Source: Haplodiscus bocki
Lineage: Eukaryota
Length of the DNA stretch: 64,000 nt
Direction of reading: 5' to 3'
Assembly: GCA_965655095.1 (NCBI GenBank)
Contig: OZ296648.1
Coordinates: 110,236,001 to 110,300,000, forward strand
Below the pieces are notes generated by a model. The model saw only the letters and a program-made list of their open reading frames with translations. It had not been told where the DNA came from and did not search any database. Positions 51,985 to 64,000 of this stretch are shown here, in pieces. Made by a program: the position numbers and the translations under genes. How positions within the stretch are numbered: position 1 is the first letter of the stretch; each line of letters starts with the position of its first letter.

Positions 51985-52845
51985 CTGTTTGCAAGCATAG
52001 CACCTACCGAACATATTGCTCTGAAATGGGAAAAATTCATAGGTCTGTCTGAAAGCCTTTTGTTTGCTACCGGATAGTTTTTACACGGAATTGCATACAG
52101 AAATTGAACTGAAAAATTCAAGTTTGCGTTATTTTTGCGTGATTCCAGAGCTTGCTCGATACTCCACCATTCGTCCAACGTTCCATAAGATTTACCTCTT
52201 GATATGTCATTTCGATAAGTGGCAAAATATTCACAAATCAACTACTTCAGTATGCTTGAAATAGACCAGGAAATTTAATTTCAGCTTCCAAGTGGGTGCC
52301 TATGGTACTGAATTTCCACATGTATTCCTTTCATACAAATCGACAAAAATTATAGAAGTTGCCAATTTTTTACATTCACTCCGCAATTTCGTACGAAAAC
52401 GAGCCACAAAAAGCCGCGTGCTCCGGTCATACCTTCACCACCAGAATTTTCCGCAGTTCTAAAACCCAAAAGTGGGAAACTACGAAGAGGATATAAAACT
52501 GGCCAACGTCAATTGTGGTCGAAACTTTCTTACTTTCGAAATTTTTCCACTGACTGAAAAGACATAAAAAATCCCTGTTACCAGGTTATTCGGTTTTCAT
52601 GGTCATATGATAAAATCTCCGATTTTTAAATACAGTCTAATGTATGTGTTCTAACTTCTAGTTTTGCCTCTTTTATGCCAGAGCGGGTTTTAGTATCTTC
52701 TGAATTTTCAGGTAGAATATGTCTTTGATGGATGCGAGGTGCCCTCGATTGGACTTGCTACAAGCTTGAAATCAACAGCTCGTCAAAGAAGAGATTTTGT
52801 TAGATAAAAAAGTCAACTTTTTTCAAGAGCGTTCAACTCTAGTTC

Positions 52846-53072
52846 TGTCGATAATTAACGAGTAGAGATTATTTAATAAAGCAATGATTTAACTAATGAT
52901 AAGCGGAAGTAGTTTATCTTGAATATAGCGCCGTTTAGACTCCCGAAAGTGCAAAGTTTAAGTTTTGTTCATGTTTCCTTTAGAGATAAGTTTTGACGGG
53001 CACATTCCTCAGAAAAGTCTATTCTGCTTTAGTTTACAACCTAACATGCACTGTTACACTACCCTCCTTTCT
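52846..53072 (-). repeat. Polypurine tract (53059-53072) and start of the 3' LTR (53058); the LTR's far end is uncertain
   Basis: The minus strand reads AGAAAGGAGGGTAG immediately followed by TGTAACA, downstream of env. A TATA-like ctatatt (~52925) and ATTAAA (~52875) follow. A possible ...CA end at 52846 cannot be confirmed without the 5' LTR. Confidence 0.6.
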
Positions 53073-53709: not shown

Positions 53710-56140
53710 TTAAGTCATCGCCACACGCAGAGATGCTCTGGAGCAGCTGTTACGTCTCGCTGCTTCAGGCCTTTTAGGGCAGAAGAGGTCACACCAAAGT
53801 GGAGTAGTGAGATAGCGATGTTTATAGCGGTGATACAGCCAAACAGCAAGTACATGAAGTAACATAGAGCCAGTAAATGAAATCAAACTCGTGATCAGGA
53901 AGTGTTTAATGGAGAGATGAGATTCAAACTCCATGGAGAGCGAAGGTCGCAGCTGCGTCAGTTTAGAAGTAATAGGGCGTGCTATATCTAAGTGTTTTTC
54001 CGGGTCGCGCATTTTAGGACTTTCCAGTAAGCGTTCACGAACTTCTTTGAGTAAGGCAACTCCTGCCTCTGTCTTTGTAGAGTAATTGGGCATACCATCA
54101 GTTGCTGGTAATTCGCTCCACGGTTATTTCAAAGGATCTAGAAACTTAACATTTACTTTGATAGCCGGAAAATGTTCGCAAATACTGAGGTCGGATCTTA
54201 TCTTGATGTGAGGACCAATCATCTACCTTCCGCACTTCAAGCTGATTTTACAGGTTCGGCATGCTGGATATATCGTAATTCTATGAGACGTAGTAAATTC
54301 CATATCACATTCAAATAAAGTATGAGCGGTTATGACCGAAGTAACGAGCCAAGCTCCATAGCCTAAGTTTTCTGTTTTTTCCGTCGAAAGTAGTAGTTGT
54401 TCAGTTTCGCAATTTTGTAGAGCTTCAACGCTATCTTTGAAGTAGAGAGTTGCTAGGCAGGACTCGTGCCCCGCTTCAGTTGCAATCATGTCTACGCATA
54501 TTTCATAGCGAGTAGATCCAATACATCGTGAGAGATCATACTCACTTAAGGAGGCTGTATCATCGTTAATTTCGGAAATTGCCAAGAAAGCTGCTTCTAA
54601 TTTCCATTTAATTGCCATATCATTTTCTGGTTGTGGCATGGGGACTGCTAAAGCTCTAAAGACAGTGAACGCTGATTCCTTTGTTGCTAGATGAAATGCT
54701 ATGCGCATGATAATTCCTTGCTCCACGACTATAACATGACGTAATATTTTCGATTATTAGTAGGCTAATCTTTCATCAATAGGAATTGCTACGGAAAGTC
54801 TGTCCGTTTTTCCCCCTTGTTCCAATGCCACATTGTCTAGAATTTCTAAGAGCGATTGTCTGGGAATTAGCGACATAGGAGGATAACGATTGAGCATTGG
54901 CTGTATTGAATTGATCATGTTAATCCGATAAGTGTAAAGACCGCTTCTAGAACTTTCAGTGTTAGCAGAAGCAACTGCCAGCAATGAAAAATAGTATCAT
55001 AACTGAAAATTACTTGCTGTCGAGAGAATAACAGCTGGTCACAGTCACGTAACATATGAATGTTTTGCCCAAAGATTTCAAAATGTTCTTGTATACCTTT
55101 CCGGTCACGTTTTTGGATTTCAAGCTTTTCTTTTTGAACGGCTATAAGTGCATCAAGTTCTGTCGTAACCATGAAAAAATTGTCGTTAACGTCGCTTCGT
55201 AGTTTGAAAGCATCTTCAGATAGGAATTCCGTGAACTCTGCTATTTTCTCTATGTTAGCTGCGTTTTGTTTTGCACACTCGTGACAAGATCCAGAAATTC
55301 CTCTAAGTCCGCGTTCGTCAGTTCCAAGGGCAATTCCTGATCCAAATAATCCAACGGAAGCAAGCGCCATCATTGCAAGTGACGCTGCCCTCAACGACGT
55401 TTTGCGCTCAGAAGCGGCGCCTTGTGCCGTGTTCAGGAAAGATGAAGTAAGTTGCTGAGAGCGATAAGCTCTTGCTCTGCAAGACGAATTTCGTGCTTGA
55501 ACTAGATGTAATAGCCAATCAAAATCGAAAGAAGAATCATTCTTCTGGAAATTGGAAGAGTAGTCCAGATGACATTGCACACTCGGGTGGCTCGAGGGCT
55601 TTCCCAGTTTTGCTAAGTAGGCGCCTGGTTCGGCACTCACGTTCATGTCGGAGTTTGGAAAGGGAACCAAAAAATCATCATTATTTAAACTTTTCAGCCA
55701 ACAGGATTTTTGCAAAGTGGTCGGAAAAAAAACCTTGTCCGAGTACTGCACCAGAATTTTGGTCGGCAAAAATGTCCGAGTTCCATTCAGTCGGGGCGGC
55801 AATTGCAGCCAGTAGGAGGGAAACCACTCAAAAAAATGCGGCGTAAAAAACATTGCACGTTAGGAGTCAGGAGGAAAAAAAAACAACATCGGCGAAAACC
55901 TTGCGAGCAGTTTTGTTTTTGGAAAAGATACTCCAACTTTTTCAGAGCTTCGAAAATGTCTTTCTGGAAGAGAGTCGGAATTGTTGTCCTGCAATGCTGT
56001 GAAGACAAGACTTGCATCAGTGGGCATCGTGTGCCAAAAAGGCTGCCGGCTTGAAGCTGGGAACAGAGGGATGAGGCAGATGAAACTGACCTTTGGAGAA
56101 AGTCGCGCGTGGTTAACCTTCTCATCATTCTGTACTTCAT
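53710..56140 (-). pseudogene. env: env-like fusion glycoprotein, frameshifted over five ORFs
   Basis: ORFs 55787..56140, 54915..55853, 54757..54984, 54223..54726 and 53710..54093. Features: a degenerate basic site followed by a fusion-peptide-like RKTSLRAASLAMMALASVGLFGSGIALG, heptad-like helix (AANIEKIAEF...LDALIAVQKE), Cys-rich region (LSRCIGSTRYEIC...ESCLATLY...QNC), and a C-terminal TM (FLITSLISFTGSMLLHVLAVWLY). It is the last ORF before the PPT. Confidence 0.8.
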
Positions 56141-56691
56141 TATGAAACGTTTACGGTAAATAAAATGCAGGTGACAGGAGGCTGTGAGGGTGTTCGAACT
56201 GCGCCTTATTCAGTAAGTGTTGCAAATGATGCTTTTTGTGGTATTACAGAAGTGGTAGAAAGATTGTAGGATAGAATCTGTAGACTTTATGTTATTAAAA
56301 GCTTAGGATTGGGTTGAAAAAATGTTTGGTGAGTGAAGAATGTATTTTGTATAGTTCCAGCTGAGAGTTCAGTATAGAAGTGTTATGAACTGGAAAAGTT
56401 CAGAGCTTGTTGGATTAATGGTAATCTTTGATATTTAGTGCAGGTAAAGGATGTTGAAGAATCAATGCAAACAAGACTGGCTCATTTACAGTCAACTTTT
56501 TGCACAAAAGAGGCTTGGGAAGCGCATGGCTGAACACCAATCCCTGCAGTCAGGTGCTCTGGATTATCGTGGCAACAAATCAGCCAAAAGGTAGGTAAAG
56601 AGCTACAAGTATCGCTTCGGGCTGGAAGAAATAAAATGCATGTGGAAATTCAAGAACAAGGGGTTTTACTTTGAATACAACACTTTTGAAT

Positions 56692-57125
56692 CTACTGGAC
56701 AATGCAAGCAAAAGGAACTCTGCTTCTATTGGCGAGGGGCTGGAAAAATTTGGGGTGACCGTAAAGACGTTGCAATATCAAGTTATGTTGATGGATAAGC
56801 CCTCGCGTGGATGGGCTATTGACTTCGATCAACATGCAGAATATGAAATCCCCGACAACTTGAAGCATTGTGCTTGTAATGGTATTATGAGTAAAACTGT
56901 ATGGTTTCCTGAAACCCATATAGAGATCGGAGCCGATGAATCAATTGAATATGTGGCACGGGGGAACGATTGCAGAGCGTGGAGCTGCCTCCACTCATTT
57001 ATTCCATCAAGTGAAATGTTTGGGATATCCAATGAATTTTTTGCAGCGTGGTCCTGTAAAGAAGTATGCGAACAAATTATGGTTTTACGGAAGGTCTGCT
57101 CCCAGTATTTTCGTGCAACGTGCAT
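56692..57125 (-). pseudogene. Unknown accessory ORF of the LTR element (two overlapping frames, probably one frameshifted gene)
   Basis: ORFs 56829..57125 and 56692..56919 overlap on the element's sense strand between pol and env. No recognised motif. Confidence 0.35.
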
Positions 57126-58297
57126 TATTTGCTCATTCTATAGTTACCCAACAAAATAATTTTGTGGTGGCATCCGGATGGGCAGCATCTAACTTCTCAG
57201 ATGAGGCTCGTCATGGGCAACTAACTAACAACTATTCCTGAGGGCTCCGTAAAACTTACAGAGCGTACATCTAGTCTTTGTCTCTTGAAGACGCAAAAGA
57301 ACTTACTATCCAGCTGGAGCAAAGAAATGGGCTATCCGATATCGTACGTTACTTCTAGCCGTTATAAAAACAATGGAAAAGTATTCAACCATCTGTGCGC
57401 GGGCGGCGAATGATACCGAAGAAAAGTTTCTAAAATTACCTACTGTGAGAAAGCTGCCGAGCGAAAAAAAGACCAAGAAACGGTAAGTGTCTTGCAATAA
57501 ATTGGTCAACACATGATTGTTCAATGGCGTATTCCTCTCTTCGGAATGTTGCTAGCAAAGCACAATTGTTGGCTTACAGAGTTGAAGAAGCAAGCAGCAC
57601 TTCATGCGAAAATTATTATGCTTGGAATGAATTTGGCTGTGAGAGGTGTTCATGAGCCATCATTATCTGATTTGTCAACTGAAACAAATCCAATTTATGT
57701 TTATGTGCAAAGGTATGGCTCTCAATTGTACGCCCCGCTGATGAAAGGAAGGGCAGGTAATAATAAAAAATCATGAACTAGAAAACTCTAGCGAAAAATT
57801 GTCATAGTAGAGTTTCCAGGCAGGCCAAAATTTTTTTTGTTTCGAAAAATAGGCCCATCCAAGAATACAAAAGCTGGAAGAGAAAAAGAGGTACCATCAG
57901 AAACTACCGGACATCAGTCAACTTTTTTAAGGGATTTTCCAAATTCGGCGAAAAACTTTTGTTTTTCTTTCAAATTATTAAACTTTTACCAGAATGAGGT
58001 TGCTTCCTGCAAAAATGTGAGGCCTTCCAGCAATTTCGGAATCAAAACAACACGAAGCGCAGTAAAGAAAAAAGCAGCGAACATCCTACGTACTGTTGCT
58101 GTTTTTGTGTTTTTTTCGAGATGGTGTTTTGGATCTGTTCATATTTCAAATTATAATCAGTCTCTACAATAAAGGCTGCAGCTGCCTGTGCTGTATAAAA
58201 AAGTAGGTAAAATGAAGGTCAATTTCGATGAATGGCAAACTTAAAAGGTTGTTAATCTAAGAATTGAGGAGAATCTAATGAGTTTGTGCTTGAAGCG

Positions 58298-58627
58298 TCA
58301 GTCATGATGATTGTGCCAGGCCATCGATTGCATGGCAAAGACATCAAGGTGATTCAGCCAGTCGGCGAAGGAATCTTGGTTGGCTGTTTTGGGGTCACGG
58401 GCGGCGCATGCGATCAAATCGTTCCAAGCCGGAGTGTTGGGATAAATGGGGTCATGCCAATGCAAAAAGTGGCCATAGTTCCATCGGCGGAATGTCAAAA
58501 TCGGTGGCGGGTAACCAAATTCATCGCTAATGCCGACCAGAAGAACTCTTCCGAATACGTCGGAAATGTAGTAATCGTGGGAAAAATGCCAATTTAAACG
58601 GTGGATTTGCGAAAACTGAGACGTCAC
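58298..58627 (-). CDS. Unknown 109-aa Trp/His-rich accessory ORF (paralog 1)
   Basis: Uninterrupted ORF on the element's sense strand (starts at a GTG). Its coding nature is supported by a diverged paralog at 59001-59296. Confidence 0.55.
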   Translation of the reverse strand: MTSQFSQIHRLNWHFSHDYYISDVFGRVLLVGISDEFGYPPPILTFRRWNYGHFLHWHDPIYPNTPAWNDLIACAARDPKTANQDSFADWLNHLDVFAMQSMAWHNHHD

Positions 58628-59000
58628 GAAGATATTAGCATATTCTCAAGAAAATTCGACAATAATGAGGGCGGTCAATCGTTCTCATATGCCCAAGAAA
58701 TTCCAACTGCAATTCAGAATGTTTGTCTACTAACAAGAAAAACTGACGCCAAAGAAATTTTGTCCTACTGAATGAACAACGTACAATTCCTAAACTGGAT
58801 TTTGGAAACTCAGATATCATGACTCAATTGAAAAACTGTTTTTTTTTGTTTTTGTGTTTTTTGTTTTCTTTTTTTCTCAAGTTACCAGTACATAAAAACT
58901 GAAGTATGGAAGTTCAGGTAAAGATAGTTCTGGCTATAAGAGTGATTAAAGTCGTGATATCACTAACTGCAGTGGCTAAAACTAACGAATGGCTTTGAAA

Positions 59001-59296
59001 TTATCTGGCCATCCAGTCAATGAGGTTTTCAACTAAGTTGAAGTCATGAGCATGGGGAGCAGTGGCACTCATGACTGTGCTCCATTCTGGTGATTCTGGG
59101 TAGATTGTAAAGTCTCTGTATAAGAGGGATCCTTGACTTCAATAACGGATTGCGCAGTCCACTCGGGGGCGATGTATGAAGGGGTCACTCTCCAGACCAC
59201 AGGAACACCATGAGTGTCGCATGTGTATCCAGTGATGGGTTTTTCCGAATTAAACCACTCATGGTGTTAGCATACGTTGAATATCTGATTGAAGAT
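59001..59296 (-). pseudogene. Unknown accessory ORF (paralog 2), one internal stop and one frameshift
   Basis: Manual translation IFNQIFNVC*HHEWF...YTCDTHGVPVVW.../LLYRDFTIYPESPEWSTVMSATAPHAHDFNLVENLIDWMAR* shares F.QI, D..G.P, IYP..P.W and DW(L/M) with 58298..58627. Confidence 0.55.
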
Positions 59297-60097
59297 TTAT
59301 GATGACAGTGAAAAATCTGTGTTTTTAAAGAGGCTGATGAGATAAATGATGATTGATCCAAAATCTTTAGGCGATATCAGGTGTCAAGTCACAAGACAAT
59401 GAAGAACAATGTGCGCCTTTGTGGCTGCTCGACTGTGATAAGTCAGTCAGCAAAATCTTACAGCGCTCCCGTATCAGCATATTGACGGGTGGAGTCAATC
59501 AAAGCACCCCATTCAAATGTATGCGTTAAGACATTATCTTCATCAAACACCAGCATTTGGTAAAGCCACCGCTGTGTATATATTCGACGACATGCTGGAG
59601 TAAGTCCGCGATGTTCAATTCCTCTAATCGTGAGGATTTGGAATATCTCGCACGTTAAAGTACGGTGCTGTCAGCCCCGAAAGATTATTCGTTGTCGTCG
59701 TTGCTTGTAATTTATTCTCTTTCAAATGATATAAGGACTTTCGAAAAATTGAAGTTGAAGTGTTTACTGATAAGAAAGGGTTGACACATGGTACTTCAAC
59801 TTAAAGTGATTCCTCTAGTCAGAACGGTCAGACTGAACATCGCCACATTTCTGATCAGACTTTTTAGCAAACAGGTAATCGTTTGTGACATTTCTCCGTG
59901 TGGCGTGTCACGGTCGTTGCGGTCATTCGTGGTAGGGCATTTGAGCATACCTTTCAGATCTCAATTCCGAGCTTTACTCATTTCTCGATCATGTCGTTAC
60001 GTTTCCCCATCTGAGGAACATTCCTCTGCAATCAACATATTTTGCGAATTGTCGAAATTTGAATCTCAGTAGGAAAGTTTCAACGAAAAGTGTGCTT

Positions 60098-60538
60098 TCA
60101 AAATTTGTTACCAGTTTCATCATAACTTTTGTCAAGTTCACATCCAATTTGAGGTAAGTGAACTACATTAATGTTATTCTGTAACATGTCACTTTTCATG
60201 CAACAAAGGCATTTATTTACGTCAAAATGGGTCGGTTTGTCAAAAGAATGTGGTTTTGTCACTAAATTATACATCCAGTTGTTACTTGATGCATTAAAAA
60301 ATGCTATCAGTGAACCTGTTGTTAAGTTAAAGTGAGTTTTCCGTACTTCGGACGATCCTGGGAAAATTCGAACGAATTGGGTCGCAATCCCAGCTGACAT
60401 TGCTGGGTCAGACGAAACGCATTGAGCAAAAGTTGCTCGTGGATTGCTAAAAACGTCACTTTCACAAATTGTAATGTTAGGCGATAACTCTGCTTTCTTT
60501 TGAATCGCGTCGTAAATATTTACTTGAAATCGTGTCAA
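60098..60538 (-). CDS. TARG1/OARD1 (Poa1p-like) macrodomain, C-terminus degenerate
   Basis: ESDVFS..FAQCVSSDPAMSAGIATQF...WMYNLVTK...KPT...LPQIGCELDK matches the TARG1 signature GDLF..LAHCISEDCRMGAGIAVLF...YIYYLITK...KPTY...MPRIGCGLDR. The final W-containing helix is missing. Confidence 0.85.
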   Translation of the reverse strand: MTRFQVNIYDAIQKKAELSPNITICESDVFSNPRATFAQCVSSDPAMSAGIATQFVRIFPGSSEVRKTHFNLTTGSLIAFFNASSNNWMYNLVTKPHSFDKPTHFDVNKCLCCMKSDMLQNNINVVHLPQIGCELDKSYDETGNKF

Positions 60539-61379
60539 ATAAAATCACTAGAAGGAGTAGGTTGTCCTGTATTGGATCTTCCTAGATAGCGATGCTTCAA
60601 AATGAATGTTGCGGGCGATCGGCCGCTTTGTGGCACTGGAATTTGAGATTGCGAGAGCTGTTGTCCAGTCGACTGTGCTATAGTTTATAGGTGATCATGT
60701 TTTTCAGCACGCGTAGGCGGTGTTTCCGTCTGCTGAGCTAAATAGGCATAATAACCACCTGTTAATTGTTTGCGGTTAGGGATCTGTCGAAAATGATCCT
60801 ATTTGTCAAATACTATGCTTGATGGCTGCAGTTGGACCGTGGATTCGATCACTGGACTCTTTGTAGGAATCCGTGAGCGTGCTACCGTTCCCGATCAGTC
60901 AACCGAAAGACTAGGAAAGTTTTCGTTCTTGAAACGTGATACGGTTTCTTGCGCTGGCACGCCGGGCTGAGAATATCGTCGTGTACATGAGCCGGGGTCA
61001 TTTGTAGGTTAGGTTCTGGAAAAATAAGGTTTTCCTGTTCTACCGGAATTTCTGGGTGAGGTGCGGGTGGTGGTGGGAACGAGAGCATGCGCCAGCCCCA
61101 TGAAAATAAGGTTGAGCATCAGCTTGCGCTGGTGCTTCAAAGTGTTTACAGCCGGGGCCGCAACTGCGGGTGCAGCGATCGCACCTCGTATAGTATGCTG
61201 TACTTCATCGTCACTTTTTTTGCGGTGTATCAGGGATTTGATAGAACATCGTGTCCTCAAATGATTGCTCCCCTGCAAAGTCAAAAATTTCATAGTCGGA
61301 ATGATCCTTTCCCAAACTGGGATCGGGTCGGATATCATCCATTAATACAAAAATGTCATCAAAATCATAATTAGGTGTT

Positions 61380-62420
61380 ATCGGTCGCAGCCGAATGCGA
61401 TGAACGCATTTTGTATGAGGAGTACCAACTTTTCGTATCAGGTAGTCGAACTTTGTCAGAATTTTTTCAACTTCATACAGTGAGAGTCAAATCGAGGACT
61501 TAGCAGCAAAATCACTCGGCCTAAGCAAAGAAGGATTCAAAAATAAGCAGTACTTGTGGTTGGCCAACGGTTTTGCTGCTGCTTTTTTATCGTAGTAGGT
61601 ACGATATTTGGGATAGGCATCCAACAATCTAGATTTTGTGTGATAATTGTTCCAAGAGTAAATCTTGCAACGCCACCAGATAATCTGAGGTAAGCTCTTT
61701 CTTTGGAACGTGGCTTCGGAATCTCAAGTTTATAGGTTTTATTGGCTGTCTACCAAGAAACAATGAGCTGAGAGTACATCTAATCGAAGAAAGGTAAGAA
61801 ATAGTATGAATAAACGTAGGTAGGTTGACGTACCGATACCATTTATTCCAACTTCTGTCCGTATCAAGTTTAAGAATGCGTTTTAATGCCGAACGTCATC
61901 GTTTAACTATTCCAATAGTTTGAGGATGCTTCAAAGAAGCGTGTTGTAACTGACATTCAAATAAATCATTCCGTTCATGTTGTTATTTTGCTACAAGGCT
62001 GGTTTCTAAGTCAGTCAGAACTGTCGTAGGAGTGTAGCTGTGTTGAAAAAAATTTGAGACTCTACTGCATTCGCTACACCTCCGGCGTGTGCCGATGTTA
62101 GCGAGGCTGCACACAGACATTTAGATAATACATCAATGCCTGAGAGAGCATATTCGTAAATCGGTGAGTGGAGAGGACCAACCATGTCAATTTGCATCAC
62201 ATCTCCCGGAAAAAGTTGTTCGTTGAGATTGGCTGCAAGGGAGGGTTCAACTGCTTTTTGTTAACTCTTTTCAGTGTCGAACATGAGAGACACTTTTTGA
62301 TGTATTCTGCGAGGAAGTCTGTGAACCCCGGAAAGTAGAATCTTCTACGAAACTCTTGAGCGGTTCGGACAACTCCGAGGGAACCAGCTGTCGGTGAGTT
62401 GTGAACTCTATAGATTACTT
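61380..62420 (-). pseudogene. Integrase (Zn-binding region, catalytic core, GPY/F-like C-terminus), disrupted
   Basis: IYRVHNSPTAGSLGVVRTAQEFRRRFYFPG...IKKCLSC (~62270-62415); QIDMVGPL...YALSGIDVLSK (ORF 62015..62200); SLKHPQTIG (~61910-61940); YEVEKILTKFDYLIRKVGT...VHRIRLRP (~61385-61478). Confidence 0.88.
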
Positions 62421-63049
62421 ATCGCAAATGTTTTGCAATGCCCACTTGATGATGCGAAAACTTTCAACATCATCAAAAAATTGACGAGTTAAAATTACTT
62501 TTTGTAGTTGGAAACGCCAAAGGTTCTTATGATTTTTTTTAGTTAAAATGAAGCATATATAATAACCTCTGTGCCTCCTTTTTGAAACCAGGCCATAACC
62601 TTTCGTAAGCTGGATTTTTTTTTCTGCTCTGTCTGAATGTCTGTCGCTCGTGTGTTCGAAATTGACGTTTCAAAGAAATTCAATGGGTAATTTGCTTGGA
62701 TTGAATTAATTTCAGGTTCCTTTTTTCCAAGCAAAAAGTTCAATTGTCTCTTTTAGTAAAGCTATTTTCAAGAATTTCGTTTCAGTTAGTAATTAAATTT
62801 TGTAAAGCATCGTTATCTTGTAATTGGGCCAAGAGGTGTTGCGGTATTTGAGGTTGTTTGGTTTTATTTAAGGCACTGTCCGATTCTACCAACAGCATGT
62901 ACTCATCGGGTGTTTTGACTTTCATATTTATATCAATTTCTTTCATTGGAATTGCGTCGAGCAATTGTAGTTCCAAGCTGACTTGGATCAGTTGGCATTC
63001 TCGAAAGAAAAAAAGACTATGTTAAAGGAGATCACTCTATCCATAAAAC

Positions 63050-64000
63050 ACTTAGTGATGGGTGAAGTAATTTTGACTGAAAAAAACTCGTGAGACTTTT
63101 GTCATCGGTTAAAACAATGACCGGTCTTTTGCACCCGAAATGAAATGAGAAAAATTTTCTAAAGCAAAATAAAGTGTTAAAACATCTTTAAAACAACGTA
63201 GACATTTTTCAACGGTTCAAATTGTGAGAACCAAATGACAGTGGTGCGTAAGATTATTTGTTTGTTGTCCAGGTTTGGCTAGTCTGAGGGTGGTTGTGAT
63301 GATTCGTAAAAGATCTTTCTTTATGGTTTCAAAAGTTCAAGAACGATCATCACTCAAGGAAAATTCAGCATCTTTCCGAAGTAATTTATACCAAGGCATC
63401 AAACTTTGAGCTAGGTTAGGCATAAATGTGCAAAAAAACAAGACAAAACCAACCAATCCTTTTACTTGTCTAGCTGTTGCCGTTAATTTCATTGTCTTAA
63501 AAGATTTCTATACTTTCGCAGGTTCCGGTATAAAAGCTTTGGGTGTGATTGTGTTACCAAGAAAGTCTATCGAGGTCATGCCAAATTCACACTTGTGAGG
63601 GGTCAATCCAATTCCTGATTCAAATATTTGTCTAAGTGTGTGGACCAGTTGTTCAAATGTCTCCACTCCACATCCGATAACGTCCATGAATTGTGTAGGA
63701 TGTTAGCCGCGAGGCAAGAATCAAGGTAATACCTGACAAAAGAGCTAAATCACTGATTTGTTGAAGCCTCGAGTTTATCTTGTGTAAGCGTTTGTTTTCG
63801 AGGCAAAGTTGAAAAATAGGAGGTGGACTGATAAGGGGTCAGCCATTTTTACACAATGATACGATTGTGAACAATCTAAATTGGTAAACTAAGTCTTTCC
63901 TGCAAAATGATTAACGGCGTCTGTAATGTTTGAAATTGGGAAATTGTCATCGCTGTAATCACTTCGAAGGAAGTGATTAACACGCCTCAACTCAATCAAT
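63050..64000 (-). pseudogene. pol: Reverse transcriptase and RNase H, disrupted, truncated by the window end
   Basis: LIELRRVN...FPISNITDAVNHFAGKT*FTNLDCSQSYH; QFMDVIG (degenerate YxDD, ~63670-63693); LTPHKCEFGMTSIDFLG; VKGLVGFV; RNase H PVIVLTDDKSLTSFF (~63085-63125). Confidence 0.9.

Follow-up and report, generated by a model that had tools for sequence, protein, structure and literature searches.

We have analysed a 64,000-nucleotide stretch of the Haplodiscus bocki genome (contig OZ296648.1, positions 110,236,001 to 110,300,000 of the forward strand; hereafter the window), which contains an old minus-strand Ty3/Gypsy retroelement with an env-like gene. The region between its pol and env genes is a decayed copy of a selected accessory block, carried by a recently active group of env-bearing Ty3/Gypsy elements. 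The block consists of three related sense genes (A, B and C) and two antisense genes, J and T, and J is predicted to encode a JmjC-fold 2-oxoglutarate/Fe(II) oxygenase. We lean, with some reserve, towards reading J as an anti-silencing histone demethylase that would act in trans. Since a Pfam search of 32 window frames finds integrase as the sole match, the block cannot be read from the window copy alone, and its layout has been deduced from other copies in the same 1.5 Gb genome.

A conserved accessory block under selection

Env-bearing Gypsy elements are usually depicted as gag-pol-env. In the young copies here, the order is gag, pol, sense A, B and C, antisense J, antisense T, and env, with a gag product of 417 residues, a Pol frame of 1923, A/B/C proteins of 93–102, J of ~370 and an env product of ~800. 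The same layout has been found in 9/9 of the first whole copies, one of which has a tandemly amplified paralogue array, with env not reached. In the three youngest copies, the long terminal repeats (LTRs) are 490 bp long, 99.0–99.8% identical and ~15.8 kb apart, and a 5-bp target-site duplication is present in four of the five copies inspected. The LTRs begin with TG, and TGG then follows (primer site); the termini are GA or TA, not CA, and a purine tract lies ahead of the 3' LTR. Overall, with LTR pairs 99–100% identical, the family has been recently active. The description of the element as a relic in the original prediction is therefore right for the decayed window copy and wrong for the family.

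Pol has the order protease, reverse transcriptase (RT), RNase H and integrase (Pfam, on Pol of two families, the protease match being weak), and gag overlaps pol, each in its own frame. In a young copy, the N-terminus of the env frame is hydrophobic; further on come a basic site resembling a cleavage site, with a hydrophobic peptide after it, and a membrane segment at the C-terminus. At the sequence level, this would suit a class I fusogen; in Pfam and the Protein Data Bank (PDB) the frame has no sequence match. Among the 120 RT matches listed, 119 are without a name and one is a 'hypothetical protein'.

We have surveyed 70 copies anchored on a macrodomain in Pol, the window copy included, on 10-kb stretches. 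Genes of the A/B/C type are present in 69/70 and J in 62/70, while T is found in at least 50 and env in at least 63; the latter two are lower bounds, as some of the 10-kb stretches stop early. The distance from macrodomain to env has a median of 4.4 kb (range 1.3–5.3 kb, 63 copies with both ends), which agrees with the original prediction of an env-bearing Gypsy element with a block of ~4.4 kb. The check proposed with it, whether the block is syntenic and selected in other copies, comes out in its favour by these counts and by the selection estimates below.

As an anchor-independent check, we selected from the 150 env hits listed the 20 that seemed likeliest to be without a block. Of these, 13 have integrase upstream, and all 13 carry at least one block gene (J in 12); the remaining 7 have no pol within 9 kb. 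Two contrary outcomes had been named for the block, its lack in other family members and a composition of nested insertions. We have found instead at least one block gene in all 13 of these copies, and self-BLASTs of young copies show no internal repeats marking a nested element. The block is thus a syntenic, selected accessory region and not a nested insertion. In addition, three metagenome contigs contain J. Two of them are 91–93% identical to genome copies and have open full-length frames, and one has T and env adjacent. The block is not an assembly artefact, because these contigs also contain J.

Copies vary in the number of sense paralogues, from one to four. A second lineage, with a macrodomain ~60% identical, usually has two rather than three, and two older copies (L147, L150) have up to four A/B/C-type paralogues. 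A third family, reached by searching with distant relatives of J, has RT 71–75% identical and LTR pairs up to 100% identical. Antisense J stands there in the same position and orientation in 9 of the 10 loci fetched, among those listed. This family (L110–L129) also has a T-like gene, whose product bears a signal peptide; between J and this gene lies a different sense open reading frame (ORF) of 94 residues. No A/B/C genes have been detected in it, and the 94-residue ORF does not match the A/B/C profile, which also scored a true member weakly. One of its loci (L110:3764-9541) has a weak dUTPase-like match (E 0.018) at Pol residues 155–237, between protease and RT. Elsewhere in the genome, pieces of the element (the paralogue array, part of J, the env start, the macrodomain) have turned into tandem repeats with units of 1.2–2.5 kb, at L042/L043 (C7:39.92-39.93 Mb), C10:49.68 Mb, C8:27.58 Mb, C1:187.41 Mb and L144.

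We have estimated the ratio of non-synonymous to synonymous substitution rates (ω) with codon models on stop-free copies. For the backbone, ω is 0.14 for RT, 0.20 for integrase, 0.22 for env and 0.37 for the macrodomain. The paralogues give 0.42 for A (p 3e-9), 0.59 for B (p 0.001) and 0.31 for C (p 8e-16), and T gives 0.30. Each of these eight values differs from 1 (p ≤ 0.0013), and a counting method agrees. For J, ω is 0.34 (p 3e-9) and 0.51 (p 0.004) within the two largest sequence types; across all types it is 0.14, a rough value, with 97/300 pairs saturated. The five alternative frames over J range from 0.61 to 1.82, and the antiparallel frame at 0.61 (p 0.01) is expected because third positions coincide. 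Most block genes are therefore under purifying selection.

The paralogues A, B and C are mutually 25–30% identical. For C, at least 150 matches are listed in the genome, and six homologues, all 74–96% identical, have been retrieved. The C model (predicted local distance difference test, pLDDT, 80) has a four-stranded sheet and two helices. It has no Foldseek match at E 0.001 in the PDB or viral libraries and no usable ESM Atlas match, and its best VIA Z of 4.3 is insufficient to call the fold new. T has 70–95 residues, six of them conserved cysteines; its C-terminal helix is hydrophobic and its short tail basic. A/B/C and T are probably host-interacting accessory proteins. The macrodomain is homologous to OARD1 (phmmer E 5e-15) and occupies residues ~1713–1860 of the 1923-residue Pol frame in young copies; at least 150 genome matches to it are listed, several within such a frame. 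It probably removes ADP-ribose marks.

J and the exchangeable T+J cassette

The structural model of J, made from an unbroken relative (pLDDT 74), has the double-stranded beta-helix JmjC fold, which has been identified by structure while sequence search is silent. Foldseek places PHF2, KDM7A, PHF8 and KDM2A at the top (E 6e-9). In the ESM Atlas, J goes with JmjC clusters at 0.96, several of the matches being JMJD4 or Cupin_8 clusters. The H-x-E...H triad and the 2-oxoglutarate Thr/Lys are kept: the first His, together with Thr(-3), Glu(+2) and Lys(+17), is invariant in 25/25 unbroken J sequences, as is the distal His, and a motif search finds His, Glu and the distal His in 8/10 more distant loci as well. 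The catalytic spacing equals that in two host JmjC exons taken from the genome, which we take from their motifs to be JMJD6- and JMJD4-like. The tail of J is rich in Lys/Arg.

A Pfam JmjC search of the genome gives six places, and since none of them lies at a J locus, J is no recent host exon. A library search gives 238 relatives of J, with no names among those checked, and viral contigs hold no relative of J. Distant relatives (P0113, P0154, P0123, P0138, P0085; ~20% identity) stand on short contigs and possibly come from other organisms. Poly(A) signals lie 3' of the J stop in 3/5 copies, which is uninformative.

Unbroken J falls into nine types with 37–65% protein identity, and a tenth type occurs among broken copies. 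Copies with differing types are 92–98% identical in pol, paralogues and env, whereas the intervening 2.3–2.8 kb shows only 40–60% DNA identity. The types are dispersed over the RT tree of 62 copies, all from this genome, with the 8 copies lacking the RT region left out. Across lineages, identity within the same J type can exceed that of the backbone (93 vs 84%, 90 vs 81% and 84 vs 68%). There are 11 T clusters, each paired with a single J type, and the third family shows cassette swaps too. T+J is thus a cassette of at least 10 deeply diverged types, exchanged between near-identical backbones and across RT lineages.

The decayed copy in the window

The window element runs on the minus strand from its 3' LTR past the window end, to ~67300. 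It is old: pol and env are each interrupted many times, and the LTR pair can be aligned over 106 bp only, at 85%. The gap between the pol end (~59934) and the env start (~55880) is ~4 kb, and the window holds remnants of every block gene seen in young copies. The 3' LTR (52638..53058, ~420 bp, minus strand) is 79–81% identical to LTRs of related copies by blastn, and the purine tract preceding it (53059-53070, minus strand) has been read from the sequence. The env-like gene (53758..55881, minus strand), with stops and frameshifts, matches the ~800-residue frame of a young copy at 59–70% in tblastn. The decayed pol (59934..64000, minus strand) comprises RT, RNase H, integrase, linker, macrodomain and tail, as identified by tblastn with young Pol and by Pfam Integrase_H2C2. 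Past the window end, in the neighbouring stretch L031, tblastn with young Pol and Gag locates where pol starts, followed outwards by gag and what remains of the 5' LTR.

Within the block, the ORFs of the original prediction have fared unevenly. The one at 58298-58627 is a real gene, paralogue C, an open frame of 102 residues (58301..58606, minus strand) 73% identical to young copies. The ORF proposed at 59001-59296 contains stops in all three frames, and covers the relic of paralogue B (58989..59262, minus strand), which is frameshifted here, codes for 93 residues in young copies, and has been recognised by comparison with those and by translation. The ORF at 58635-58820 is open here over 61 residues, is not conserved as an ORF and lies in spacer: 41 other copies match it, 4 of them over at least 80% of its length, and 2 of those 4 are stop-free. 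What was given as one ORF at 56692-57125 dissolves into two overlapping sense frames, with one weak match and none, respectively, in the other 69 copies; it is the shadow of antisense J. The macrodomain, put at 60098-60538 as an ORF of its own, belongs to the 1923-residue Pol frame in young copies, and here forms a TARG1/OARD1-like C-terminal domain of Pol (60128..60541, minus strand).

Three block genes had been missed. Paralogue A (59392..59694, minus strand; 101 residues in young copies) contains stops and is 76% identical to young copies. The J relic (56635..57420, plus strand), with frameshifts and stops, matches unbroken J in tblastn (E 7e-19), and its translation keeps H-x-E and the distal His legible. 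The T relic (55950..56156, plus strand) has one stop and has been recognised by tblastn (E 5e-10) and translation. The block is hence not all-sense, as originally proposed: A, B and C are sense, J and T antisense. The spacers, described as AT-rich, are only modestly so: their GC content is 0.34–0.40, against 0.38 in the flank and 0.42–0.49 in the block ORFs. The observed/expected CpG ratio is 0.88–0.96 in five old and young copies, giving no trace of methylation-driven decay.

Outside the element, a tandem array occupies positions 4600-41000 of the window, with at least 23 repeat units of ~1603 bp, 92–100% identical; one unit, compared with the retroelement copies, does not match them. A 147-residue frame, presumably a fragment of a Helitron Rep judging by its motif, is present at 987-1427. 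A 2.2-kb tandem repeat lies in L031, beyond the 5' end of the window element.

Possible roles of the cassette and known systems

On the reading that we favour, J would strip repressive histone methyl marks, and element copies would thereby stay transcribable. The cassette may be transcribed from an antisense promoter of its own, close to where env begins, and J may enter the nucleus by its Lys/Arg-rich tail. As J would act in trans, J-less copies could ride along. Cassettes would likely be exchanged by template switching during reverse transcription between co-packaged RNAs, using the conserved flanks, where the paralogue array ends and where env starts. The persistence of many types might be due to the host defence recognising rare ones less well.

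Several observations weigh against this reading. Eight of the 70 copies are without J. Five copies on five contigs (L099, L101, L103, L108, L109) share one common 1.6-kb deletion that removes J, and this J-less sublineage continued spreading. An element can therefore do without J in cis, as one would expect if J made a diffusible accessory product or brought only a modest benefit. The restriction to stop-free copies biases the ω estimates downward; in the second lineage, selection is weak on A2 (ω 0.56, p 0.02) and not significant on B2 (ω 0.79, p 0.38). For J itself, the active-site loop (155–160) of the model has pLDDT below 50, and neither single sequences nor profiles match Pfam JmjC or the solved JmjC chains in the PDB. 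KDM2/KDM7 demethylases combine the JmjC domain with a PHD or CXXC reader and carry Tyr where J has Thr; Pfam finds neither these readers nor zinc-finger ones in J and its relatives. Moreover, VIA-align ties JMJD5, JMJD6, PHF2, TYW5 and KDM7A (Z 13.3–13.7, root-mean-square deviation 3.4–5.4, 192–254 aligned; the Z 13.7 match has 3.4 over 192).

The tie bears directly on another possible reading, less probable in our view, in which block and cassette are the same and J hydroxylates proteins or RNA, as a JMJD4/5/6-, FIH- or TYW5-like enzyme. It would modify a splicing, release or restriction factor or a tRNA, in favour of export, frameshifting or translation of the element RNA. Besides the structural tie with JMJD5, JMJD6, TYW5 and FIH, the JMJD4 and Cupin_8 clusters among the Atlas matches, the catalytic register shared with the JMJD6-like host exon, the missing histone reader and the gag/pol overlap in different frames all agree with such an enzyme. 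On the other hand, the KDM7/KDM2 group is top in Foldseek, the basic tail suits nuclear or nucleic-acid binding, and other JmjC-carrying parasites took demethylase types (PMC11244446).

The constant pairing of T and J suggests yet another role, a module for identity or exclusion among competing subfamilies, in which T would be a surface protein blocking or marking cells against re-entry, J would modify either a shared factor or proteins of the element itself, and the types would be held by element competition rather than by host silencing. T is indeed a small membrane protein rich in Cys, its third-family counterpart has a signal peptide, and many old types on young backbones may be typical of recognition systems. 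But Env, the expected partner, is 92–98% identical across cassette types, and we know of no exclusion system that uses a JmjC enzyme; we consider this role unlikely. Finally, the existence of J-less and paralogue-poor copies and the lack of significant selection on B2 would suit passenger DNA, in which nested insertions or fragments captured from the host are carried along neutrally. Against it stand the order and orientation alike in three families, ω below 1 together with catalytic residues invariant across types only 37–65% identical, the lack of nested-element repeats in young copies, and the absence of the genomic JmjC matches from the J loci. This explanation is very improbable for the block, and for J, T, A, B and C it is ruled out by the codon-model ω and the invariant catalytic residues.

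Taken together, three related families retain a multi-gene accessory region beyond gag-pol-env. Should J demethylate histones, a retroelement would here encode an enzyme that counters chromatin silencing. The deep and balanced diversity of the exchangeable cassette points to a host or rival factor limiting the elements, and the cassette types, together with the J-less copies, form a natural series of enzyme variants for comparison. The farthest-reaching version of our reading would see here an infectious complex invertebrate retroelement clade, which carries a histone demethylase in the form of a polymorphic antisense effector cassette, shuffled in at least 10 ancient types among young genomes under frequency-dependent selection, plus an ADP-ribose eraser and a paralogue family without known relatives; enzymes would be the weapons in an arms race with the chromatin silencing of animals. 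This version is doubtful.

In the literature, we have not found a retroelement-borne JmjC gene, within a coverage that excludes most subscription papers, nor a macrodomain in Gypsy elements (including the accessible part of PMC4695847). No JmjC element appears in the accessible parts of PMC4402516 or bioRxiv 10.1101/2021.11.30.470311; the latter has a table of transposon-chromatin fusions, which may affect how new the finding is. The closest relatives in organisation are the metazoan env-carrying Ty3/gypsy elements, or 'ancient errantiviruses', of Chary and Hayashi (PMC13524379). In that 2026 survey, they are alike in gag-pol-env, LTRs, young multicopy insertions and an env-like protein with a cleavage site and hydrophobic peptide, while the elements here differ by the 4–5 kb block between pol and env and by the Pol macrodomain. 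The terms 'JmjC', 'macro' and 'accessory' are absent from its main text. Since its prefilter allowed a pol-env gap of ≤1 kb, the survey could have missed such elements.

Accessory ORFs are known from other Gypsy elements, such as Burro (PMC6431247), Cer1 CERV (PMC10309623), the bdelloid ORF3s (PMC5408684) and the sORF2 of the MDG1 group (PMC11952523), and Retand has antisense ORFs in a 3–6.5 kb region after pol (PMC11963269). For none of these do the accessible parts of the sources describe a JmjC gene, a pre-env paralogue array or an exchangeable multi-type cassette. The FAST-like sORF2 is sense with an N-myristoylation motif (PMC11952523), whereas T is antisense and without MGxxxS/T, yet has a membrane helix and a short basic tail.

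Two systems come near to J itself. Endogenised giant viruses in Amoebidium carry KDM4-like JmjC-only genes, proposed to counter host chromatin (PMC11244446), and are likewise a case of a reader-less JmjC domain in a genomic parasite. Those genes, however, are recognisable KDM4 paralogues in DNA viruses, while J matches no JmjC family by sequence and sits in a retroelement as a swappable cassette. Orchid Ty3/Gypsy elements carry an ORF for an AlkB m6A demethylase, with activity shown and read as counter-defence (PMC9289625), likewise an extra 2-oxoglutarate/Fe(II) oxygenase in Gypsy; they differ in the AlkB class, the recent capture and the plant host, and the activity of J is a predicted one.

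Compared with the human enzymes KDM7A/PHF8/PHF2, KDM2A, JMJD5, JMJD6 and TYW5, J is alike in fold, in the H-x-D/E...H triad and in having Thr and Lys in register, but it is 10–18% identical, without reader domains and with Glu in the triad. With the complex retroviruses (lentiviruses), the elements share a likeness in layout only, namely selected accessory genes between pol and env.

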